In this document: piece after piece, positions 8,912 through 39,648 of the stretch | How positions within the stretch are numbered: the stretch's first letter is position 1 | Layout of the letters: each line of letters opens with the position of its first letter | IMG/VR virus record: IMGVR_UViG_3300045988_050273 | Coordinates: 1 to 39,648 of that record | DNA: 39,648 bases | Direction: 5' to 3' (one strand) | From: a virus | Notes under the pieces: model-generated | What the model was told of the DNA's origin: nothing | Databases searched by the model: none | What the model saw: the letters and a program-made list of their open reading frames with translations, nothing else | Made by a program: the position numbers and the translations under genes

Positions 8912-9156
8912 TGGGTAAGCCTTATTATCTTAGGACTGGCACAGGCGATTTTAACTACGTCAATCACAGACTAAACGACGATAGTTACGTTTGTGCCGGT
9001 CCAGGGTATGAGCGCAAGGGTATCAATACTTGTATCCATACCCGACGAGAGTGGAAGAAGTATTTTCCGGACCTGGTACGGTCGGGCAAACTTGAGCGAG
9101 TAACCGGAAAGGCGGCGGTCGCGTGGCGAAAAAGCCAACGATTAGAGAATCAGTAG
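8911..9156 (+). CDS. Hypothetical protein (81 aa)
   Basis: ATG 8911 is coupled to the upstream stop. I recognise no motif. Confidence 0.7.
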   Translation: MGKPYYLRTGTGDFNYVNHRLNDDSYVCAGPGYERKGINTCIHTRREWKKYFPDLVRSGKLERVTGKAAVAWRKSQRLENQ

Positions 9157-9437
9157 TCGAAAGCTACCTAAGAAAACAGGTCATGCTAGCCGGGGGCCTT
9201 TGCTGGAAGTTTACCAGCCCAGGGACCAACGGCGTACCGGATCGCGTTTGCATTATGAACGGCAATATCGTTTTCGTTGAATTAAAACGGCCAGGCGGTA
9301 AGCCTAGGGCCGATCAGATCGCTATTCATAAACTTATGGCCATTAGGGGCGTAGCGACGCTTGTGATCGACAGTAAGCAACAGGTCGACGAGTTGGTCGC
9401 TATGATGAAGAAGAACCAAGGGACCGGTGGCTGGTGA
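9123..9437 (+). CDS. VRR-NUC domain nuclease
   Basis: ESVVESYLRKQV...GVPDRVCIMNGNIVFVELKRPGGKPRADQIAIHKLM fits the PD...ExK...Q pattern of VRR-NUC. GTG start at 9123. Confidence 0.8.
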   Translation: MAKKPTIRESVVESYLRKQVMLAGGLCWKFTSPGTNGVPDRVCIMNGNIVFVELKRPGGKPRADQIAIHKLMAIRGVATLVIDSKQQVDELVAMMKKNQGTGGW

Positions 9438-9462
9438 TCCATTTTAAAAAGTAGAGAGGACG

Positions 9463-9478
9463 TGTTTCACGTGGAACA
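9463..9478. promoter_or_regulatory. parS site 1 (chromosomal ParB/Spo0J-binding centromere-like sequence)
   Basis: TGTTTCACGTGGAACA. Its reverse complement TGTTCCACGTGAAACA matches the TGTTNCACGTGAAACA consensus at 16 of 16 positions. Confidence 0.85.
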
Positions 9479-9758
9479 AGAGATCAAGAAGTTAACCAAG
9501 GCCGTCGACAAACTGGCCAGGGAATTGAAACGGTACAATGATACCAAGAACACAGGGCCAGCCGGTGAGCCTGGTAGTCTGCCAGACGTCAAGGTAAGTC
9601 TAGGCCAGCGTAATGAGGGACGGACATTCGCAAACATGCTAGCTAGGGCCATGAGCCAGGACGCAGATGAACAAGTACGCGAAAAAATGGAAGAGATCGC
9701 GGCGGCACTGAAAGCCGAGCAAGTTAAAAAATATCGCAGCAGAGGGGGACGAAGCTAA
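9471..9758 (+). CDS. Hypothetical protein (95 aa; 98 aa if started at GTG 9462)
   Basis: The track start GTG 9462 lies only 2 nt after the SD AGAGAGGA (9453..9460). GTG 9471, the centre of the parS palindrome, has more plausible spacing. I recognise no family. Confidence 0.7.
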   Translation: MEQEIKKLTKAVDKLARELKRYNDTKNTGPAGEPGSLPDVKVSLGQRNEGRTFANMLARAMSQDADEQVREKMEEIAAALKAEQVKKYRSRGGRS

Positions 9759-10091: not shown

Positions 10092-10487
10092 ATGATAAAT
10101 TTCAAAGTAACCGGCGTCGATATTCAAGCCGACGTAAACCAGGACGACTTCACAAGCGTCATACTTCACACCTTAGTCACAAGCGACAAGAAACGGGGGT
10201 CCGCCGAGGAATTAGAGCAGATCGCTAGGGCAGTCGGTACGCTATGCCATACTGACCTGGAACCCGGGTACGAGGTAAACCGGGCGCCTTTGGGTCACAC
10301 GGTCGAAGAGGTCAACAGTACGATAAGCTACGCTGAAAGCGCAGTGTATGACAGTGTTATGTTAGAACTTAAAAATGCAGCCCTTAAAGGTGTAGCGCCT
10401 ATCCAAGCCATTAAGAACTTAGGCGGCATTGAGAGCGAGGGCGTTCTGCTGGCGGTACGTGACTGGCTTAACGAGGTGACGCAATGA
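10092..10487 (+). CDS. Hypothetical protein (131 aa)
   Basis: ATG 10092 follows AAGGAGGG. The stop overlaps the next start (ATGA). Confidence 0.75.
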   Translation: MINFKVTGVDIQADVNQDDFTSVILHTLVTSDKKRGSAEELEQIARAVGTLCHTDLEPGYEVNRAPLGHTVEEVNSTISYAESAVYDSVMLELKNAALKGVAPIQAIKNLGGIESEGVLLAVRDWLNEVTQ

Positions 10488-10801
10488 TAATCGCAACCTT
10501 TAAACCAGACGGCTTTTGGGTCAAGGGTCATGCAGAATACGCAGAGATCGGTAGCGATATCGTTTGCGCTGCCGTGTCGTCCCTGGTTACTCACACCGTT
10601 CGGCTCATGGCGCAACAAGGGTACCAATACGAACTCACAGAGGACGTCACAGGCCTTGCAGCCGTTAAGGTATTAGTTACACCGTTTGGGGCTTTAAACG
10701 TCATGAGCGCGCTCATGGATAGCCTAAACGACATTGCAGCTCAGTACCCGGAAAATATCGAGGTCCACGACTTTACGAGAAAAGAGGAAGACAATGAATA
10801 A
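10484..10801 (+). CDS. prp: Prp-like cysteine protease (ribosomal protein L27 N-terminal processing family, DUF464)
   Basis: MIIATFKPDGFWVKGHAEYAEIGSDIVCAAVSSLVTHTV carries the family signature GHA...G.DIVCAxVS (His/Cys dyad). The size (105 aa) is typical. Confidence 0.85.
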   Translation: MIIATFKPDGFWVKGHAEYAEIGSDIVCAAVSSLVTHTVRLMAQQGYQYELTEDVTGLAAVKVLVTPFGALNVMSALMDSLNDIAAQYPENIEVHDFTRKEEDNE

Positions 10802-14686: not shown

Positions 14687-14711
14687 CCCAGAAAGTCAGT
14701 AATGGTCAAGA

Positions 14712-14972
14712 AAGCTAGTAACCTACCTAGTATACCACCTAGTACACCGCAAAACGTTATCGTACCAGTGCTTTTAACTAGGTACTACTAGGTCATACTA
14801 GCTTTATATAACTTTTAAATTAGGGGTATAGTATGCTATTAGGCATAACAGTATATTAGAATTACAGAATAGTTTAAAAAACCTCGTAATACCTAGTAAC
14901 CTCGTAACCAGCCCGGTATGACAACGTTTCGGCGGTATACGAGCCTGAAACGACCTCGTAACCTCGTATACC
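14712..14972 (+). repeat. Structured ~260-bp non-coding element, copy A (second copy at 24958..25216)
   Basis: It aligns block by block with 24958..25216: AAGCTAGTA, TACCACCTAGTACACCG, ACTAGGT..TACTAGGTCATACTAGCTTTATATAA, TATAGT, TATATTAG, AATAGTTTAAAA, TACCTAGTAACCTCGTAAC, GGTATACGAGCC, GACCTCGTA.CCTCGTA.ACC. It contains at least 8 copies of CCT(A/C)GTA or its complement. Confidence 0.9.
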
Positions 14973-14977
14973 TTTTT
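14934..14977 (+). terminator. Perfect 10-bp hairpin plus T5 at the 3' end of repeat copy A
   Basis: GGTATACGAG (14934..14943) pairs with CTCGTATACC (14963..14972), followed by TTTTT (14973..14977). The homologous hairpin in copy B (25178..25216) has no T-run. Confidence 0.55.
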
Positions 14978-15090
14978 AGCGTAATGTTCGTGTTTTGCCG
15001 TGTTTGCCGTGTTAAAAAAATTAATGTTCGTGTTACCCGGGTTACAACACGGCAAGTAACGCTAAAAACGCGCGTCGACCCGGGTTAAGA
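14978..15090. repeat. Repeat-dense non-coding segment upstream of the packaging genes (candidate pac/cos or origin-like region)
   Basis: Direct repeats: TAATGTTCGTGTT x2 (14982..14994, 15022..15034), tandem TTGCCGTGT x2 (14995..15012), and ACCCGGGTTA x2 (15035..15044, 15078..15087). Inverted partner ACACGGCAA lies at 15047..15055. Outer stem is TAGCGT/ACGCTA. Confidence 0.6.
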
Positions 15091-15108: not shown

Positions 15109-15375
15109 GTGGCATTCAGTGAACAATTTGTTTTATCAGACGAGTATATCAACGGGCTACGCGTCCGTGTTACCGTGCAAGACACGGACACCGACACGCT
15201 TAGTTTTGTGTTTGACGGCGGCGAGTTTAATATCAAGCGCGTCGTAATTACGGATCAGTGGGTCAAAATTGAAACAGTTGACCGCGGTACCTATCGGTAC
15301 GCGACCGACAGCGTCCGGGAACTATGGACCCACGACATTATAGAAGTAGAGGAGATCGAAAACAATGAGAATTAA
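15109..15375 (+). CDS. Hypothetical protein (88 aa)
   Basis: GTG 15109 lies 8 nt after AAGGAGGA (15093..15100). It is the first ORF after the long gap. Confidence 0.7.
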   Translation: MAFSEQFVLSDEYINGLRVRVTVQDTDTDTLSFVFDGGEFNIKRVVITDQWVKIETVDRGTYRYATDSVRELWTHDIIEVEEIENNEN

Positions 15376-15655
15376 TATCAACGCAGATCATGAACCGGCA
15401 GCGCCAGCAACCAGAGATCAGAAGATCGAAAAGATTTTCATGGTACGAAAAGGCATAATAGCGTATAATGTTAGACACCTAAGATATAGCTATCGTATGA
15501 GCCGTGACGACGTTGCGGCAAGGTGTGGGTTATCGGCCCACTCAATCGTCCAGGCAGAGCGTGAGGACGTCGACGTTAAGCTTACGACGCTGATTAGGAT
15601 AGCCGAGGGTTTTGGTATTACATTAGAGAAATTAATAGGGGGACGGATAAAATGA
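15365..15655 (+). CDS. XRE-family helix-turn-helix transcriptional regulator
   Basis: LRYSYRMSRDDVAARCGLSAHSIVQAEREDVDVKLTTLIRIAEGFGITLEKLI is a canonical HTH_3/XRE pattern. Confidence 0.8.
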   Translation: MRININADHEPAAPATRDQKIEKIFMVRKGIIAYNVRHLRYSYRMSRDDVAARCGLSAHSIVQAEREDVDVKLTTLIRIAEGFGITLEKLIGGRIK

Positions 15656-15852
15656 ACGACAACGATTTAAGACGCCTAGCTGCCTTGATTGCAAAGCCAG
15701 TCAAGGAACAAGGTGCAACGCCAGCGAACGCGGCCTATATTGTACGGCCAGCCATGACTAAGTTCGACGTAGCATTCCGAGCGATCGGAATTGCCATGAC
15801 ACCACAAGAGAAAGAACGGGTCGTCGAACTCGTAATTAATAAGCTGGGCTAG
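15652..15852 (+). CDS. Hypothetical protein (66 aa)
   Basis: ATG 15652 is coupled to the upstream gene by an ATGA overlap. Confidence 0.7.
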   Translation: MNDNDLRRLAALIAKPVKEQGATPANAAYIVRPAMTKFDVAFRAIGIAMTPQEKERVVELVINKLG

Positions 15853-17834: not shown

Positions 17835-19493
17835 ATGTTCGACAAGATCAAGGGCGCCATTGGACGCGCCAAAAACTATATAGGGGGTATTTTCGGAATG
17901 AAAGAGCCATTAAATTTAACAACGGTCACGGACCACCCAAAAATCAAGCTGGCGCCGAGTGAACTAATTCGGGTCAGTGAAAACAAAGAGTTTTTTAAAA
18001 ATATCCATGACGACGTCGTTTACTACGACAGCAATAACGACATGTGTACGCGGCCATACAACGCCGTTAACCTAAGTAAGACCGTGAGCCGTAAGCTGGC
18101 CAAGCTGGTATTTAACGAGGGTTTCAACGCCGAACTAAGTACTGAAGACGCGCAAGAGTTTATCGACAGTATCCTCGAAGCCAACCGGTTTAACCAGGTA
18201 TTCGGCGAGGAATTAGAGGGCGGCTATGCAATCAGTGGCCTGGCGATCGTGCCCGTCTTTGACGACATGGCCCGGACAATCAAGTTCGTATACTGCAGCG
18301 CGGACAACTTTATACCATTGGACGGCAATACGAACCTGGTACGATCAGCAGCGATCCTTAACCACTACAGGGACGTCAAAGACGGCGAGATCGTCTACTA
18401 TACCCTCTTTGCTTTCCATGAGCCGTATGGCGTCGTAGGGTCCTTAAACCAGCAAGGCGAACCGGAATATGGTTACGCGATCCACCATGAGCTATATGAA
18501 TCTAAGGACCCAAACACCGTCGGCAAACAAGTCAGTCTTAAGGCTTGTGAAGAAACAGCCCACCTACAGGACCAGGTTCTTATGCCAGGTCGTGGTAAGC
18601 CGCTATTCGTTTATATTAAGCTTGCCGGTAAGAACAACGTTAACTATGGCAGCCCGTTAGGCCTTGGGGTCATTGACAACGCCAAGCGCCAGCTTATTAA
18701 TTTTAACGACAAGTACGACTTGTATATGAACGAGATCGACACGGCAACCCGGCAGCTAGTGGCGTCCAGCGAATTTTTTGAAACTCGCTACGACCCGAAC
18801 GGCCAGCCGCGCCGAGTGTTTAACCCAAGAACGCAGATATGGCAAAGGCTACAAACAGAGGACCCAATTATCCAGGACTTCACGCCAGCGATCCGGGCAA
18901 CCGAGTATATCGAGAGCCTTAACTTTATCCTACGGATCATTGAGCAAAGCACAGGCTTTTCTAGTGGGACATTCAGCTTTGACGGCCAGAGCGTTAAGAC
19001 AGCGACCGAGGTTATCAGCGAGAACACGGACACGTATCAAACACGGGCGGACAACGTGCTTATCGTGGCGACAGCCTTGGGCGACCTATTGGAAAACTGC
19101 CTATACCTGGGCCAATACTACGACGTCTATAATGGACGGATCGACGTAGATATCGTGATCGACTTTGACGACGGTGTATTCACGTCCAAAGCAGAGCGCC
19201 AAAACTACGCCGTAGCTGGGAAGTCTGCTGGCCTACTATCGGTACGGACCGCCATGAAACGCGCATTCGGCTGGGACGACGACCAAGCACAAGCCGAGTA
19301 CGACAAGATACAAGAGGAGAAGACGGCCAGCACGCCGTCAGCATTCCAGCAGTACAGCGAGCAGCTACAGTACGGGCCTAGTGAAATACCAGGGGCCAGT
19401 GACGACGAAGACCTGGAAGACGAAGACGCTGGCAACGCGATCATAACCGAAGAAACTCGACGGGGCAACCGGGCAGCAGCGCGGAACCAATAG
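17835..19493 (+). CDS. Portal protein (SPP1 gp6-like)
   Basis: 552 aa, located after terL. The N-terminal region and acidic C-terminus are typical of Gp6-type portals. Confidence 0.85.
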   Translation: MFDKIKGAIGRAKNYIGGIFGMKEPLNLTTVTDHPKIKLAPSELIRVSENKEFFKNIHDDVVYYDSNNDMCTRPYNAVNLSKTVSRKLAKLVFNEGFNAELSTEDAQEFIDSILEANRFNQVFGEELEGGYAISGLAIVPVFDDMARTIKFVYCSADNFIPLDGNTNLVRSAAILNHYRDVKDGEIVYYTLFAFHEPYGVVGSLNQQGEPEYGYAIHHELYESKDPNTVGKQVSLKACEETAHLQDQVLMPGRGKPLFVYIKLAGKNNVNYGSPLGLGVIDNAKRQLINFNDKYDLYMNEIDTATRQLVASSEFFETRYDPNGQPRRVFNPRTQIWQRLQTEDPIIQDFTPAIRATEYIESLNFILRIIEQSTGFSSGTFSFDGQSVKTATEVISENTDTYQTRADNVLIVATALGDLLENCLYLGQYYDVYNGRIDVDIVIDFDDGVFTSKAERQNYAVAGKSAGLLSVRTAMKRAFGWDDDQAQAEYDKIQEEKTASTPSAFQQYSEQLQYGPSEIPGASDDEDLEDEDAGNAIITEETRRGNRAAARNQ

Positions 19494-19505
19494 CAAAGTA
19501 GGGAG

Positions 19506-19521
19506 TGTTTCACGTGGAACA
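19506..19521. promoter_or_regulatory. parS site 2 (identical to site 1, same orientation)
   Basis: TGTTTCACGTGGAACA lies 12 nt after the portal stop codon. The flanks AAAGTAGnGAG (5') and A (3') are shared with site 1. Confidence 0.85.
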
Positions 19522-20650
19522 ATTAGACTTTTATGGCGCCAAGGTACAAGAGTTATACCAGTACCTTGAAGCGTCACTGTTTGAAATAATCTGCCGCAAT
19601 CTACGACGGCAGCTGGAAAAGCTAGGACCCGATAGCGAGTTATCCATACCAGCGTGGCAGATCGACGCGCTGGCAGATATCGGTCAGTTAAACGAGGACG
19701 CAATCGCTAAGATTGCCGAGGTATCCGGACTAACGCCGGACGTCGTACGCCAGGCGGTCTACAGCGTCGGGTATGACACGATCAAAGAGGTCGACGACCG
19801 ACTAACCTACCGAGAGCGTCCACCAATACCAGCGGCCCTACAGCAGCGCCTAGACGCCTTAGTAAACCAGGCAGTCCTTAACCTTGATAACTTGATTAAT
19901 CAAACGCTGCTAACGTCTAACGGCGTCGTCGGGGTTTACCAGGATATCATAAGCCGCGCTGCTGCCGAAGCGTCAATAGGTTTAACCACGTTAGACCAGG
20001 CGGTCAGTCGGACCGTAAACGAATGGCTAGAAAAAGGCATTCAGTCGGGCTTTGTCGATAAGGGCGGCCGTACGTGGTCGATTGAGAACTACGCCAAGAC
20101 GGCCATTAATTCAACGATCAACAACGCGTACCGGCAAGGGACCCAGGACCGTATGGCCGACTATGGGCTTTATACCATATTAATCGGCTCACACCCACAA
20201 GCCCGGCCAGCGTGTTCGTTGATCCAGGGCCACGTTGTCGACCTAAGACCTATGGCAGCACTGCCACCTGGCTGGAAGTACAAGTCAATCTATGACCCGG
20301 TGTGGAACGCTCACTACAAGGAACCAGGGGGCCACGCTGGCGTTAACTGCCACCACCCACACCTTGTTTTCGATCCGGAATACATGACCAATAACATGAC
20401 CCAATACAACCCGGAAGAAGCCCGGAGAGCCGACGAGATCGAAGCCGGACGCAAGGCCATTGCTAACCGTATCCGGAAGTCCAAAAAGAAACTAATGGCC
20501 TACGAAGCGCTGGGCGATCCAGCAAAAACGGGCTATTATAAGAAATTGCTTAACAAACAGCGTAATGCTATGGTACAATACGTTAAGGACAACGATTTAA
20601 AACGTGAGTACTCACTAGAACGGGTAATCACGCCAGAATCAGACGTCTAA
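19514..20650 (+). CDS. Minor head / head morphogenesis protein (SPP1 gp7 / Mu F-like)
   Basis: It follows the portal gene, as in SPP1-like head modules. The track start GTG 19505 overlaps the SD AGGGAG (19500..19505). GTG 19514, the parS centre, is spaced 8 nt from the SD. Confidence 0.75.
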   Translation: MEQLDFYGAKVQELYQYLEASLFEIICRNLRRQLEKLGPDSELSIPAWQIDALADIGQLNEDAIAKIAEVSGLTPDVVRQAVYSVGYDTIKEVDDRLTYRERPPIPAALQQRLDALVNQAVLNLDNLINQTLLTSNGVVGVYQDIISRAAAEASIGLTTLDQAVSRTVNEWLEKGIQSGFVDKGGRTWSIENYAKTAINSTINNAYRQGTQDRMADYGLYTILIGSHPQARPACSLIQGHVVDLRPMAALPPGWKYKSIYDPVWNAHYKEPGGHAGVNCHHPHLVFDPEYMTNNMTQYNPEEARRADEIEAGRKAIANRIRKSKKKLMAYEALGDPAKTGYYKKLLNKQRNAMVQYVKDNDLKREYSLERVITPESDV

Positions 20651-24920: not shown

Positions 24921-24955
24921 AACGGGCTGGGGCTTTGGCCCTGGTCCGTTTTTTG
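24921..24955 (+). terminator. Intrinsic terminator after the major tail gene
   Basis: AACGGGCTGGGGC (24921..24933) pairs with GCCCTGGTCCGTT (24938..24950) using G-U pairs, followed by a T-run (24949..24954). Confidence 0.75.
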
Positions 24956-24957
24956 TA

Positions 24958-25216
24958 AAGCTAGTATGCCGGCTCGTCTACCACCTAGTACACCGTGAAA
25001 CGTTGACAGACCGGGCTTGTTACTAGGTGTTACTAGGTCATACTAGCTTTATATAAGATTTAATTTAGGTATAGTGGTCCTAGGGGTACCCTACACTATA
25101 TTAGTATTGTATAATAGTTTAAAAGCGCTCGTAGTACCTAGTAACCTCGTAACTAGACCGGTACGACAGCCTTTTGAGGTATACGAGCCAAAAATGGACC
25201 TCGTACCTCGTACACC
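24958..25216 (+). repeat. Structured ~260-bp non-coding element, copy B
   Basis: It is homologous to 14712..14972. It contains TACTAGG x2 plus TACTAGCTT (25021..25049), TTTATA/TATAGT (25048..25075), an extended -10 TGTATAAT (25108..25115), a CCT(A/C)GTA array (25127..25212) and a hairpin (25178..25216) that abuts the SD of the next gene. Confidence 0.9.
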
Positions 25217-28688: not shown

Positions 28689-30757
28689 TGACAATAACCT
28701 ATGGGGGCGTAGAGATTACGAAATACCTACGACCTTTACGAGAACTGGACCGAAAGATTTTACCAGAAATCGAATACCAGTTAGACAAAGTCGGCAAGTC
28801 GGACGGGTACCTGGTACGCGGCGGAAGTTTTGGCCAGCGTATTATACCAATGCCTTTTAAGATCACAGACAATTTACTGCAGAATCGACGAGAGTTGGCC
28901 CGGGTACTTAGTACCCGGGAACCACTGCAACTAATTTTTAGCGACGAGCCAGACAAATATTGGCTTGCTTTGCCTACGGGCGATATAAGCGTCGCTGAAA
29001 TGGTTTTCCAGGGTAAGGGCCAGATCGATTGGATCGTACCTGACGGGGTAGCCCACGCTGTAACGCCGCGTATTTTTACGAACGTTACGACACCAACGGG
29101 GACCGCTAACCAGGTACTTGATCCAGAATTTCAAAACCGAATGAAATACTACAAGCCTTGGGCTTCATTGCTGCAAGAGGTATACAATACCCACAACGTC
29201 GTCAAAGGTGATTTTACCGACACTAACACGATCGCGGACAAAGGCGAGCCTAGGGTCCTAGGTATGCACGTCGTCCAGCAGCCGCTAAGTTCGGCCAGGA
29301 ATATATCGTCGCTAGCCATTGGGTCCAAAGTTTCGGCCCAGGTCATGGCCAGGATCGATACAGCGGCCACAGGGGACACCACAGGCGCCAAAAGCGTCGC
29401 TTTGGTAGTCCAGGAACTAGAATACGCTGGCGGCCCGGTACTGGCTTACAAGGCCGTATATCCGACGTCGCTAAAAGTCGGCACGTTTCAAGCTTTGACA
29501 ATCACAGGCTACACGATCACACAAGCAAAGACCAAAGCGCTAAACATGCTCATGCTTATCGGTGATACTGCAGCAGTTAGTTTCTCTATGCCGCAGTACA
29601 ATCTAGGGGCAACGCTAGCGCCATTCAGTGTTACAAATAACACGTTGACCGACATGATAGCCGTAACTAACCCAGGGTCGTACCGTTCCTGGCCAATTAT
29701 CCGGGCACTTATGAACGGTGAGAACGGACTAGTGGCAATCGCCAACGAAGACGAGGGGCTTTTGCAGTTCGGGAACCCAGACGATATCGACACCGCGCCA
29801 GGGGTCCGTACCGATAAAGTTATCAGCATACCTATGAGAAACAACGGCAGCAAGTTTGAGTTAAACAGCCCGAAAGCTAAGCCAGACTACCCTAACTTTT
29901 TACTAGACCCGTCAACGCCTAACAAGCCGGGTATCGGGGGCATTGACTGGAAAGCTAACCCGGAAGCGGCAACGCCTATATGGCCCGAAAATAAAGACGC
30001 CGTTTGGGCTGGTCCAACGCTATACACAGATATACCTAGAAATACGGCCAACCGTGCAGACGGGACTTTCTTATGGCGTAACCGGTTCGACTTCCAACCA
30101 ACTAAAGCAACGTCGGGGCGCTTAACCTTTACGCTGCAAAACGAAACAGATGGTTCTGTATTGTCTGCAGTTATCCGGGATAGTACACGAAGTAAAGAAG
30201 AATTGATCGTCGAGTTTTCTTGCTTTGACCGAGTACAGCACAGAGTAAGCCTTGACCGGAAAAAATGGACTGGCCGCTTTTGGGAGGTTTCGATTGAACG
30301 TACCGGAGATATGCAAGTTACTTGGAAGTTTTCACAATTCAAGGCATTTAGCGGCGAGGGTATCGAAGCAGCACGATCCGAAGTTTTCCAGGCTACACTA
30401 CCAGAAATAAGCGGCAAGGAGATCGACGGGCTTTGTTGCTGGTTTCAAAAGTGGGGCGACGACCCAACCAATAAATGGACGACGTTTATGGACTGGACTG
30501 ATACCAAGTTCTACTGGACCAACGAAGAAGTAGCAACAAATATACCCAATCTATTCGACGACGGCGACCTTGTTGAAATTGACACGGCAGCCCGAAAAGT
30601 ATACATTAATGGCATAGAGAATTTTCAAATCCAAGCTATCGGTAATAGGTGGGAACGGTTCGCAGTTGAGCCAGGAACGACTACCATGCTACCAATAGCG
30701 TCGACTTGGGCCAATATGTATGAGTGCCAAGTCGAATTGAGAGGGGCATATCTGTAA
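28685..30757 (+). CDS. Distal tail protein (Dit), enlarged form
   Basis: The N-terminus MMTITYGGVEITKYLRPLRELDRKILPEIE...RIIPMPFKI is typical of siphovirus Dit. At 690 aa it is about twice the size of a minimal Dit. Confidence 0.75.
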   Translation: MMTITYGGVEITKYLRPLRELDRKILPEIEYQLDKVGKSDGYLVRGGSFGQRIIPMPFKITDNLLQNRRELARVLSTREPLQLIFSDEPDKYWLALPTGDISVAEMVFQGKGQIDWIVPDGVAHAVTPRIFTNVTTPTGTANQVLDPEFQNRMKYYKPWASLLQEVYNTHNVVKGDFTDTNTIADKGEPRVLGMHVVQQPLSSARNISSLAIGSKVSAQVMARIDTAATGDTTGAKSVALVVQELEYAGGPVLAYKAVYPTSLKVGTFQALTITGYTITQAKTKALNMLMLIGDTAAVSFSMPQYNLGATLAPFSVTNNTLTDMIAVTNPGSYRSWPIIRALMNGENGLVAIANEDEGLLQFGNPDDIDTAPGVRTDKVISIPMRNNGSKFELNSPKAKPDYPNFLLDPSTPNKPGIGGIDWKANPEAATPIWPENKDAVWAGPTLYTDIPRNTANRADGTFLWRNRFDFQPTKATSGRLTFTLQNETDGSVLSAVIRDSTRSKEELIVEFSCFDRVQHRVSLDRKKWTGRFWEVSIERTGDMQVTWKFSQFKAFSGEGIEAARSEVFQATLPEISGKEIDGLCCWFQKWGDDPTNKWTTFMDWTDTKFYWTNEEVATNIPNLFDDGDLVEIDTAARKVYINGIENFQIQAIGNRWERFAVEPGTTTMLPIASTWANMYECQVELRGAYL

Positions 30758-33700
30758 TGGACTTTTATTTAACAGACCGAAGATTTAACCTTTTAGGCGT
30801 AGTTTCGACGAGTTCCGAAGCTACGCTGCAAATGGTTAACGAAACCGACACGCAAAGCATAGAGAACGCAGCCCGTGAGTTTGAGGGAACTATCTTATTC
30901 CCTACGCGACTATCAACTAAGATTAAGACGCTGGCAGCTTATGGCAATTATCTGCTATACAAGGACGAGCAAGGGAAATCAGTTTTCATGACGATCATGG
31001 AGATCGAACATGACCCGTTAAACGGCACACACTTTATACGTGCCGAAGACGCTGGCATGGACTTATTAAATGGCTACGTCGGACCTTACAAAGCAACCAA
31101 GGCAATGACATTCAAACAATACTTTGACGTTTTCGCCAAAGGTACCGGGTTTACGATCGGGATCAACGAAATCACGGACCTATCGCGTACCCTCGAATGG
31201 GAAAGCGAAGAGCAGACGATCCTTGCCAGAATGTTATCCGTGGCAACGCAGTTCGACAATGCAGAAATAGCATTCAGTTTCACGATAACCGGTACGCAAG
31301 TGGTCCAGCGGCGCCTTGACGTTATGAGAAAACGCGGCGCAGACAATCGGATCATTTTATATGCTAACCGTGACATTAACAACATAGTAACCAAAGGGAA
31401 CATATACGACCTAGCTACAGCGCTAGAAGTGTCGGGCGGTGAGATCGACGGCGTACCAGTTACGCTTAAGGGCTACAGCTACACGGACCCCACGGGTCGT
31501 TTTGAATTGGACCCAGCAACGGGTATCCTTTACGACACGGAAAGCGTGAAAGTTTGGTCGCGTCTTTTGAGCAACGACAACCCGAACCCAGAGAACGGTT
31601 ACATCAAGCGCCTTAAGTCGTATGAAACAACGAACAAAAAGACTTTACTTGATAACGCGATCCGCGAACTAACGAAAGTAAGCCAGCCGATTGTCAACTA
31701 TGAAACCGACATAAGCAAGCTGCCGGATAACGTACTTATCGGCGACACGGTTTACCTATCCGACGAAAATCAAGAGTTATATTTATCGGCCCGAGTTTTA
31801 ACCCTGGACCGTTGCTACAGCGAAGAAACCTACACGGCAACCCTGGGGGACTATTTGATCGTAGAGGACGGCCTGGCCTTGTCACTCAAAGAGATCGCAG
31901 CGCAGCTTAAAGCCGAAACGACGTACTTATGGATACGGTACGCCGACGACGATCAAGGTAGCGGCATGAGCCCAAGCCCTAGCGGCAAAGAGTATATAGC
32001 AATCAAAAGCGTCGTAGGCGTACCAACTGCCAGCGACGACCCGGACGACTATATCGGCCTTTGGCAGAAGTTTGTAGGGGATCAAGGTATACCAGGGCCG
32101 CAAGGTCCGAACGGGGCTACGACGTACACCTGGTTAAAATACGCCGACGACGATCAAGGTAGCGGCATGAGCGACGACCCAGCTGGCAAAATGTATATAG
32201 GGCTAGCAACCAACAAAACGACGCCGACCGAAAGCACGAACCCGGCAGACTATAAGTGGCAGCTAGTCAAAGGTGAGGACGGCCAAGATGCACACGTTTA
32301 CCAGGCCTACGCCTTTGACGAAACCGGTACGGATCGCTTTACGATACCTTACCCGAACGAAAATATAATCTTAAATTCTCAATTTAAGAATGGTACGACG
32401 GGTTGGCTAACTGGTAATGCAAGTGTGGAAGTTGACACCACTAATAAGCTTGATGGGCTTAACTCTATGAAAGTAGGCCTTAACGCTGATAGTACCGCCG
32501 GCACAGCGTCAAGGGCATTTTACAGATATAATGGCGAGACCGGTCTAGTACCGTCCAGCGGATCGTTATGGCTAAAAGCCGATAAGGACGTAAAAATAGG
32601 TATAAGAACCGATGGCGGTACTAAAACAGGTAGCTACAATGTAACTACAGAGTGGCAGCGGTTCGAGATACCTAAAGACGGCTACATGGTATTGATATGG
32701 GCATTTAGCTCATGTGTATTATGGGTAGCAAAGCCCAAAGTAGAGAATAGTTCGGTAACAACCATTTACACACCAGCGCCAAGCGAAGACTTTGCCAACG
32801 CTTACCCTACTTTCATGGGGACCTATGCAACGTTCGACGACACGCAAAGCACAGACCCAGCAGACTACACTTGGGCCAGAATGCTAGGTAATTCCGGGGT
32901 CGGTATCAAGACGACGGTCGTAGAATATGCCGTCGGTACCAGCGCCACTACAGCGCCGACTAGCGGCTGGCAAGCGACACCGCCAGCAGTTGGGACTAAC
33001 CAGTACCTATGGACCCGGATCACTTTGACCTATGACGACGAGAGCGTCGTTACAAGCTATAGCGTGGGCGCCAGAGGGGCGCAAGGTCCACAAGGTCCGA
33101 CAGGTCCAAGCGGTAACGGGATCGACACCAGCGTCGTAACATACGCAGCTGGGACCACAGGGACAACAGCGCCAGCTACAGGGTGGCAAGCAACGCCGCC
33201 AACCGTGGCAGCGAACCAATTCCTTTGGACAAAGATCGTACTTACCTATACCGACGGATCAAGTACCACGTCGTACGCCGTTGGTAAAATGGGGGCACAA
33301 GGTCCACAAGGGGCCAAAGGTGACACCGGACCCCAGGGGCCTACAGGTCCGACGGGTAACGGGATCAGCAGCAGTACGATCAGCTACGCGGCTAGCACGT
33401 CGGGGACAACGGCGCCAAGTACAGGCTGGCAAGGAACACCACCGACAGTTGCGGCTAACTCTTATCTTTGGACCCGTGTGATTATAAATTACACGGACGG
33501 AAGCAGCAGCACGTCGTACAGCGTCGGTAAAATGGGGGCACAAGGCCCACAAGGTAATGCTGGGGCACAAGGTCCACAAGGGCCAACTGGTAACGGGATC
33601 GACACCAGCGTCGTAACATACGCGGCAAGTGCTAGCGGTACGACGGCGCCAAGTACAGGTTGGGCTACCACGCCACCAACCGTGGCTGCAAACCAATTTC

Positions 33701-35253
33701 TTTGGACCAAGGTAGTAATAACTTACACCAACGGGACAAGTACAACCGCGTACAGCGTCGGTAAAATGGGGGCACAAGGTCCACAGGGGGCCAAAGGTGA
33801 CACGGGACCCCAAGGGCCAACAGGTCCGACGGGTAACGGGATAGCAAACAGTACGATCCACTATGCAGCCAGCACGTCGGGGACCACGGCGCCAAGTACA
33901 GGCTGGCAAACTACGCCGCCGACCGTTGCTGCCAATTCGTTCCTATGGACCCGAGTAGTTATTAACTACACCGACGGCACAAGTTCGACGTCGTACAGCG
34001 TCGGTAAAATGGGGGCACAAGGCCCACAAGGTAATGCCGGGGCACAAGGTCCACAAGGGCCAACAGGTAACGGTATCAGCAGCAGCGCCGTCAATTATGC
34101 AGCAAGTGCTAGCGGTACGACGGCACCAACTAGCGGCTGGGCTACAACGCCACCGACCGTGGCAGCTAACCAATTCTTATGGACCCGAGTAATAATCACT
34201 TACACCAATGGGAACACGACAACCGCGTACAGCGTCGGTAAAATGGGGGCACAGGGTCCAAAAGGCGACACCGGGGCACAGGGTCCGAAAGGGCCACAAG
34301 GTCCACAGGGGCCGCAAGGTATCCAGGGCGTAGCCTACTTAAGCCCAACGCAGCCAAGCACGACGCAAAACGGGTCACAGTGGTTTAAAACGGTATCGAC
34401 GACTAACCGGACAGTAACGGACATATATACGTATGTTACCGGGTCTGGTTGGGTCAAGACACCACTGGCAGCTGGTACTTTGGCCGTGACGTCGATCAGT
34501 GCAATAAGCGCCAACCTGGGTGACATAACAGCCGGTACGATTAACGGGGTGTCGATCACAGGGGCCGGGCTTTATTCAGACTTTGACCGGGCCAATGTAA
34601 GCGGTGGGACAGTGTGGACTAAGGGAAAACTGACCATGGCAAACGGTAGGTTTAGAAATGACTTTCAAGAGTATACAAAATCTAGTGGAACAGTAACCCG
34701 GAACGGTTTTTCGGAACTTACCCACGAAGCGCTAACCATGGCCAGTTTTAATGGTACCCAGACGACCACAGTGGACCGATATCTGCAGATTAACCCGTTC
34801 AGGATTAACATGATAGACAGCCAAGGGCGCGGCGGTAACTTGACTTTCCAGGACTTGTACAGCCTAGGCAAGATAGGCATTCCGGCCGGAAGTGGCTGGC
34901 GGCAATATAATACAAGTTCTAGTTCGGGTAACTTCCCAAGTGCTACCAGGGTCGGCCGTGTGGTACAGCTTGCCGGGGCCTTTGCGCCTAACGCAGCGAA
35001 GCCGTCCGGTACCGAGAACGAGGTCATGGGAACACTGCCCGTGGGCTACCGACCAGATTCGGACTGTAACTTTATCTGCCAGGGAACCAGGGCGAACATA
35101 TATTTATTAGTCGTAAAGGCAAATGGGCAACTAATGTTTAACCGTTACCGCGGCGATACTGGATCAAGCAACAACTATAAATTTGACTACAAGGACTGTA
35201 CAGAGGGCGCTTGGATCAACATAGCTTGTACCTTTGCTGCCGCAGACGTATAG
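30757..35253 (+). CDS. Tail-associated / receptor-binding fibre protein (Tal N-terminal domain, collagen-like repeats, repeated beta-rich modules)
   Basis: Track ORF 30724 trimmed to ATG 30757 (TAATG overlap; GAGAGGGG SD). The N-terminus [16 protein letters not shown] is typical of phage minor structural / Tal proteins. G-X-Y runs and six repeated modules span 32887..34329. Confidence 0.85.
32887..34329 (+). repeat. In-frame repeat array inside the fibre gene (six ~62-81 aa modules separated by collagen-like G-X-Y runs)
   Basis: Module starts are at 32887, 33076, 33292, 33535, 33769 and 34012, with a final G-X-Y run at 34246..34329. The block 33292..33768 is near-duplicated at 33769..34245 (477-bp period). 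Confidence 0.9.
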
Positions 35254-39214: not shown

Positions 39215-39451
39215 TTGTATGAATATATTGACTTAGAGCAGTTACGGATCGACGCCGCGGCCAGCGGTTACACGCAGCAGATCATTGCAGAGCGCGCCGG
39301 TATCCACCAGAGCAACGTGTCACGCTTCCTAAACGGTGAGCGCAGTTTATCATTTTTTTCGTACGTGAACCTGGTTAAGGCGATCGACGAAGACCCTAAA
39401 AAATATTTGACAGAAAAAGGCAAAAAAGTCTTTACTTTAGAATTAGAGTAG
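39215..39451 (+). CDS. Small helix-turn-helix DNA-binding protein (78 aa)
   Basis: TQQIIAERAGIHQSNVSRFLNGERS is an XRE/Cro-like HTH. TTG start at 39215 follows GGGGG. It is the last gene of the P3 operon and lies 13 nt upstream of an operator palindrome. Confidence 0.7.
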   Translation: MYEYIDLEQLRIDAAASGYTQQIIAERAGIHQSNVSRFLNGERSLSFFSYVNLVKAIDEDPKKYLTEKGKKVFTLELE

Positions 39452-39529: not shown

Positions 39530-39648
39530 AAGACGGCAATGTATAAAAAAGGACTTAAGAGTAATAGTTATTGACAGCCGGAACAGACGGCACTAAAGTT
39601 GCATTTGCGAGTGTGAACTAGGCGGAAAACTAGGGAACACAAAAAAAG
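39530..39648. repeat. Terminal direct repeat, right copy (identical to 1..119)
   Basis: See the left copy at 1..119. Confidence 0.95.

Follow-up and report, generated by a model that had tools for sequence, protein, structure and literature searches.

A siphovirus genome in which we recognised neither ParA nor ParB carries two identical 16-bp sequences that match the chromosomal parS consensus at every specified position. Both copies overlap the start of a gene, and both are retained across the phage lineage. We think it rather likely that they are genuine parS sites of the chromosomal type, which selection has maintained in a ParB-less phage lineage, and that they nucleate the ParB protein of the host.

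Two exact copies of the parS consensus

The window, that is, the whole stretch of 39,648 nt analysed here, ends as it begins, with an exact 119-bp terminal repeat (1-119 = 39530-39648), which indicates a closed circular assembly with a true genome length of 39,529 bp. The two sites and the genes around them are as follows:

9463..9478, reading TGTTTCACGTGGAACA, on the minus strand TGTTCCACGTGAAACA: parS site 1, 16/16 to the ParB/Spo0J consensus
19506..19521, identical 16-mer in the same orientation: parS site 2, 10,043 bp downstream of site 1
9123..9437, + strand: VRR-NUC endonuclease gene, ending 25 nt upstream of parS 1
9471..9758, + strand: hypothetical 95-aa ORF, its GTG start at the centre of parS 1, RBS GAGAGG at 9454-9459
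17835..19493, + strand: portal protein gene (SPP1-type), ending 12 nt upstream of parS 2
19514..20650, + strand: minor head protein (PF06152 / phrog_581), its GTG start at the centre of parS 2, RBS GGGAG at 19501-19505

Read on the minus strand, both sites agree with TGTTNCACGTGAAACA in 16 of 16 positions, including every specified one. The original prediction had reported such a complete match at 9463-9478, a total of two copies in the genome and a chance expectation of about 1e-4 sites. The same minus-strand match was found again, the second copy proved to be the identical 16-mer at 19506-19521, and our recalculated expectation of exact matches per genome (2 x 39,529 / 4^15 = ~7e-5) agrees with the earlier figure. 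A single exact copy is already far beyond chance. In 100 dinucleotide-preserving shuffles of the genome we obtained a mean of 0.09 matches at up to 2 mismatches, and none of the 100 reached the 4 strand-matches observed. Elsewhere in the phage genome there was no further parS with up to 3 mismatches, and parS half-sites (7-8-mers) showed no convincing enrichment across it. The two copies have 18 nt in common (GTGTTTCACGTGGAACAA), so they perhaps do not represent independent events.

Experiments on B. subtilis ParB have employed TGTTCCACGTGAAACA as the consensus parS (PMC7614844). The host of this phage is by inference Enterococcus-like. The sites are located on a phage genome and not in an origin-proximal position on a bacterial chromosome. 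By sequence we class them as chromosome-type parS, which the host ParB would bind, with CTP-dependent loading and spreading.

A virulent-type genome without partition genes

All credible ORFs lie on the + strand of a siphovirus genome with a GC content of 49.5%. A replication module (DUF2800/PD-(D/E)XK nuclease, Enc34-type ssDNA-binding protein, family A DNA polymerase, VapE-type primase-helicase, VRR-NUC nuclease and SNF2 helicase) is followed by the small and large terminase, an SPP1-type portal, the minor head protein, scaffold, capsid and tail genes, and then by a 1509-aa collagen-repeat fibre, a holin and a GH25 endolysin. With its one-strand gene order and no integrase or recognisable repressor, the phage looks virulent by gene content.

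Searches of the phage ORFs against Pfam and PHROGs identified no ParA, ParB, Noc, integrase or recognisable repressor, and no ORF matched a ParBc or HTH-ParB domain. B. subtilis Spo0J, queried by tblastn against all six frames, found no match at E<=10; the query sequence was validated against PDB 6SDK and 5NOC. These searches bear out the earlier claim that the phage encodes no ParA, ParB or Noc. Three unannotated ORFs were also compared by sequence with the PDB, with negative results. The components of a self-encoded ParABS cassette, namely a ParA-type ATPase, a ParB-type protein and centromere repeats beside a par operon, were all absent. About half of the ORFs have no family match, so an unrecognised phage-encoded binder is possible.

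The sites overlap translation starts

Both sites start within a short intergenic spacer and extend over the first 8 nt of the gene that follows. In both cases the 8 bases of the left half, TGTTTCAC, constitute the spacer between RBS and start, the central GTG is the start codon picked by the gene callers, and the five bases GAACA fall in codons 2-3. A change in the spacer half from TGTTTCAC to TCTTAGAC would leave the coding sequence unaltered. The ORF that starts within site 1 has no family match in Pfam or PHROGs and measures 92 to 107 aa in relatives. The minor head protein that starts within site 2 has the N-terminus MEQLDFY in this phage, as compared with MKQLDFY or MKQLTFY in relatives without parS. 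These homologues support the central GTG as the start of the minor head gene and indicate that parS 2 was built in place over a pre-existing start region. The placement of the sites on gene starts may reflect economy, because a start region would be the cheapest spot to accommodate 16 constrained bases when a genome has hardly any non-coding DNA.

Invariance within the lineage and absence from more distant relatives

We assembled a variant set of ten different genomes from different runs (L253-L262), 90-95% identical pairwise. The phage is common: the assembly collection has its 66-aa protein (15652-15852) in 101 of its indexed blocks. In IMG/VR, a search seeded with proteins found no close relatives. 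Invariance across the ten variants extends to 68% of alignment columns and to 11% of 16-nt windows. Each variant contains exactly two sites, without a change in any of the 16 bases and always on the same pair of gene starts, at an inter-site spacing that ranges from 9.36 to 10.27 kb. When gene-start windows (-8 to +8) were compared, 4 of 33 were invariant, two of them being the parS sites, which leaves 2 of 31 others. The flanks do change: the RBS at site 1 reads GAGAGG, GAAAGG or GAGAGAGG, with a 2-nt insertion in one variant, the RBS at site 2 reads GGGAG or AGGAG, and the synonymous base directly 3' of site 1 is A or G. The invariant run at site 1 ends exactly at the last parS base.

Four partial relatives keep whichever site their sequence covers, site 1 in L108 and site 2 in L102-L104. 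L108, a more diverged relative, is 85-92% identical overall (84.6% in the downstream gene), and its parS 1 still overlaps the start of the homologous ORF. Between VRR-NUC and parS 1 it carries a ~250-bp insertion (8692-8936 in L108) that contains an extra ORF, small and hydrophobic; this insertion shifts the site and leaves parS and RBS unchanged. In total, ~25 site instances, from every lineage member covering a locus, have an invariant 16-mer with variable flanks. On this comparison the 16-mers are kept by purifying selection, and constraint on translation initiation could account for part of the invariance.

The gap between VRR-NUC and parS 1 can be read in two ways, as a deletion between short TTTTA..AGA repeats in the window or as an insertion in L108. 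We had also considered whether the motif AAAGTAG, which precedes both sites, belongs to the repeat, and rejected this, as the L108 insertion parts AAAGTAG from the kept site 1.

One step further out, the site is gone. Eight relatives contained no site in their available sequence at up to 3 mismatches (up to 2 for 6 of the 8). The parS-less relatives were three collected by minor-head identity of 54-58% (L105-L107), three collected by VRR-NUC identity of 70-73% (L110, L112 and L113), for which the VRR-NUC endonuclease gene served as the anchor for finding relatives, and the complete genomes of EC99P2 and Enterococcus phage 4995_2; overall they show 46-73% protein identity. The sites are therefore confined to one species-level lineage (>=85% nucleotide identity). 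The expectation that close relatives would keep the site was borne out at the same loci within this lineage, and the more distant relatives lack it. That relatives at 46-73% protein identity thrive without parS makes the sites dispensable for this type of phage, and points to parS as a recent, lineage-specific acquisition that has since been kept.

The motif recurs in other viral contigs

The parS 18-mer occurs in 98 IMG/VR contigs with ~70 different flanking contexts, whereas no contig contains a matched control 18-mer in which GC replaces the core CG. The occurrence of the motif in other phages is thus non-random, and the possibility raised with the original prediction, that the motif is found at background frequency in phages, does not hold for the 18-mer. 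With the 16-mer, a scan of IMG/VR returned at least 120 matches for parS and 20, 39 and at least 120 for three controls, the last having a CAGCTG core, so that the raw 16-mer count does not set parS apart from its controls. Among the matches listed, two or more exact sites within 15 kb were found at 25 of 119 parS-bearing loci (21%) and at 0 of 179 control loci. ORFs adjoining the 18-mer are phage genes, including terminase, portal, coat, exonuclease and SNF2 helicase, and many of the ~70 contexts appear to lie outside long ORFs. ParB was not among the 25 most frequent of the 51 families matched within up to 15 kb per contig. We make no claim of an association between parS and terminase or portal genes in IMG/VR, as it is by such hallmark genes that short viral contigs are selected.

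Several contexts may be described individually. In the L014/L016 family the 18-mer is located ~570-810 bp upstream of large-terminase genes; in L024 it adjoins a 5'-3' exonuclease; in L034, a contig of low GC, it sits inside an SNF2 helicase gene; and L050 and L053 have tandem triple parS arrays with 29-nt spacing.

It is conceivable, and we put it forward only tentatively, that orphan host-consensus parS sites constitute a widespread and hitherto undescribed phage strategy, in which phages lacking ParB use one to several perfect sites to load host ParB-CTP clamps, and thence ParA and SMC, onto viral DNA. If so, the strategy would offer control over the location, compaction and inheritance of phage genomes, or a means of disabling the host chromosome; the Enterococcus-type phage described here would be a clean two-site example, and the ~70 IMG/VR contexts would supply others.

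Enterococcus as the probable host

The host is probably an Enterococcus, judging from sequence relationships. Among cultured phages the nearest is EC99P2, an Enterococcus phage isolated on Enterococcus_D; its portal identity is 62%, and its GC content is 48% against 49.5% in this phage. The catalytic domain of the endolysin is 84-85% identical to proteins of Enterococcus genomes. No GenBank phage was matched in a megablast with 25 kb of the sequence, and the invariant 35-mer was absent from 185,579 species-representative genomes.

Lactobacillales use this parS consensus. The OMM12 consortium includes E. faecalis. Each of the 12 OMM12 genomes was found to have ParABS homologues and consensus parS sites (PMC10197239), and the S. 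pneumoniae parS consensus is tGTTTCACGtGAAACa, with four ParB-bound sites (PMC4488948).

Proposed recruitment of host ParB and competing explanations

We propose that, after injection and circularisation of the phage DNA, host ParB (Spo0J) dimers would recognise both sites, load there as CTP-bound clamps and slide outwards. ParB would then coat the central phage chromosome, an area that corresponds approximately to the replication, packaging and head modules, and the phage DNA would thereby be plugged into the host ParB-ParA/SMC machinery. The consequence that we favour is that unintegrated phage genomes would be held, organised and distributed with host origins, by hitch-hiking in a delayed or carrier-type infection and/or by SMC-mediated individualisation of replicating DNA. 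Once its copy number is high, the phage would necessarily also act as a sink that draws ParB off the host origin. The gain for the phage may lie in partition or positioning, in SMC loading or in the ParB sink, and its virulent appearance speaks against a role in partition. Plasmids that are otherwise unstable are stabilised by chromosomal par operons in combination with one parS (reviewed in PMC7022226), and in S. pneumoniae ParB spreading from parS can damp nearby transcription without being a general regulator (PMC4488948).

The sink might itself be the primary function, in which case the selected benefit would be the depletion of ParB, and hence of SMC loading, from the host origin at high phage copy number, disturbing host chromosome segregation or division to the advantage of the phage. 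This explanation shares the ParB-binding step with the one we prefer and differs only in what is selected. In B. subtilis, one consensus parS 16-mer on a high-copy plasmid suffices to redistribute ParB-GFP, disturb its foci and cause a ParB-dependent defect in origin separation (PMC7614844), and a replicating phage offers two sites per copy. We nevertheless consider it unlikely: parB is non-essential in the tabulated Firmicutes and its mutants are only mildly affected (PMC7022226 Table 1), which makes the benefit to a lytic phage hard to see, and two sites are few for a dedicated sink.

An operator for a phage protein, or a translational operator or mRNA hairpin co-regulating the two genes, would make the identity with parS a coincidence. 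Candidate binders are two small XRE-type HTH proteins (15365-15655 and 39215-39451) or an unannotated ORF, and it suits such a reading that both copies overlap RBS, spacer and start codon in the same register, that both genes begin M-E-Q, that the phage encodes two HTH_3 proteins and that many of its ORFs are unannotated. Against this, a chance match at all 15 specified parS positions is of the order of 1e-5 to 1e-9, no + strand promoter-like site adjoins either copy, and the RNA hairpin, at -3.4 kcal/mol, is weak and does not stand out from those of shuffled sequences (z = -1.5, 0.2, -1.1). Relatives without the site still have related HTH genes, and the same 18-mer recurs in the ~70 unrelated viral contexts described above. 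Taken together, we regard such an operator or RNA element as quite improbable.

A neutral origin, in which one copy arose by chance or pick-up, was copied to a second gene start and persisted through conserved initiation regions and the youth of the lineage, is consistent with the 18 nt in common, the shared register and the restriction of the sites to a single species-level lineage, but is very improbable given that a single exact site is expected only ~7e-5 times, that just 2 of 31 other gene-start windows are invariant in the same 10 genomes, that changes flank the 16-mer on both sides and never fall within it in the ~25 site instances, and that the control 18-mer is absent from IMG/VR. Nucleation of host ParB therefore remains our preferred reading, and both the operator or RNA explanation and the neutral one are less likely than it.

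Relation to known centromere systems

The 16-bp sequence is identical to the consensus of the chromosomal parS sites at which ParB (Spo0J)-CTP and SMC are loaded in Bacillota such as B. subtilis and S. pneumoniae, and the arrangement resembles small chromosomal parS clusters in having few dispersed single sites and no repeat array. Unlike the parS of Bacillota chromosomes, the phage sites are found on a 39.5-kb genome away from the chromosomal oriC, lack parAB in cis and are embedded in translation starts. The Noc-binding site (NBS) of Bacillota, with the consensus ATTTCCCGGGAAAT, is likewise a palindromic 14-16-bp site for a ParB-family protein; the phage site is of the parS type and does not match the NBS consensus.

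Among viruses, P1 parABS, N15 sopABC and mycobacteriophage parABS encode their own ParA and ParB, with element-specific centromeres that lie beside the operon and are insulated from the host. To our knowledge, every viral centromere described so far (P1, N15, mycobacteriophages) is accompanied by a ParAB encoded on the element and has a private parS. The phage described here is like these cassettes in being a viral genome with what are, by sequence, centromere-like ParB-binding sites, and unlike them in having no ParA or ParB and in carrying the consensus of the host. A closer parallel in design is provided by engineered plasmids with a chromosomal parS, which are also extrachromosomal replicons with a host parS and no ParB gene; these recruit host ParB in trans and perturb origin segregation (PMC7614844), and can be stabilised by chromosomal Par proteins (PMC7022226). 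Unlike such laboratory constructs, the phage arrangement is natural and conserved, with two sites ~10 kb apart.

In the literature searched we found no prior description of a host-type parS on a ParB-less phage. Papers that contain the 16-mer are, going by their titles, studies of ParB, Seg or chromosomes, and none is titled as a study of phage parS; a broad review of chromosomal ParB makes no mention of phage (PMC7022226). What appears to be new here is the presence of a known ParB nucleation site, recognised by its sequence, in a natural, ParB-less viral setting.

In most bacteria, chromosome organisation centres on the ParB-parS-SMC system, which is regarded as insulated from mobile elements; these normally have their own orthogonal ParB/parS pairs. 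A natural phage with host parS and no ParB would show that viruses can tap the host machinery directly, and would offer a simple, mutable two-site system for studying the effect of ParB/SMC loading on a foreign replicon. Such a system could address whether non-integrating phages use the machinery to persist in dividing cells, as in pseudolysogeny in the gut, and whether ParB titration is a tactic of host takeover. That the motif is enriched in other viral contigs as well suggests that the question is a general one.

Other features of the phage genome

Several further elements were observed in the window. The two largest non-coding gaps, 14710-14990 and 24935-25216, contain a common ~290-nt element with ~80% identity between copies, rich in ACCTCGTA and CTAGGT/ACTAG repeats and with promoter-like hexamers. 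One copy is located ahead of the packaging/head module and the other ahead of the tail module, and they may be middle/late regulatory regions. The copies are 10,245 bp apart, near the parS spacing, so that element and parS alternate approximately every 5 kb.

A 166-aa ORF at 12513-13013 matches Pfam PF25185 (Tad3), is kept across variants and is a candidate anti-Thoeris protein. A homologue of Prp-type cysteine peptidases (PF04327 / phrog_4478) is encoded at 10484-10801, in the early/middle block and not beside the capsid genes. Long GAAGACGAC-type repeats at 658-790 and 2710-2880 encode Asp/Glu-rich C-terminal tails, of the 248-aa first ORF and of the Enc34-type ssDNA-binding protein, respectively. 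Finally, five tandem units of ~240 nt at 33058-34342, within the ORF at 30724-35253, encode collagen-like Gly-X-Y repeats of the 1509-aa tail fibre protein.
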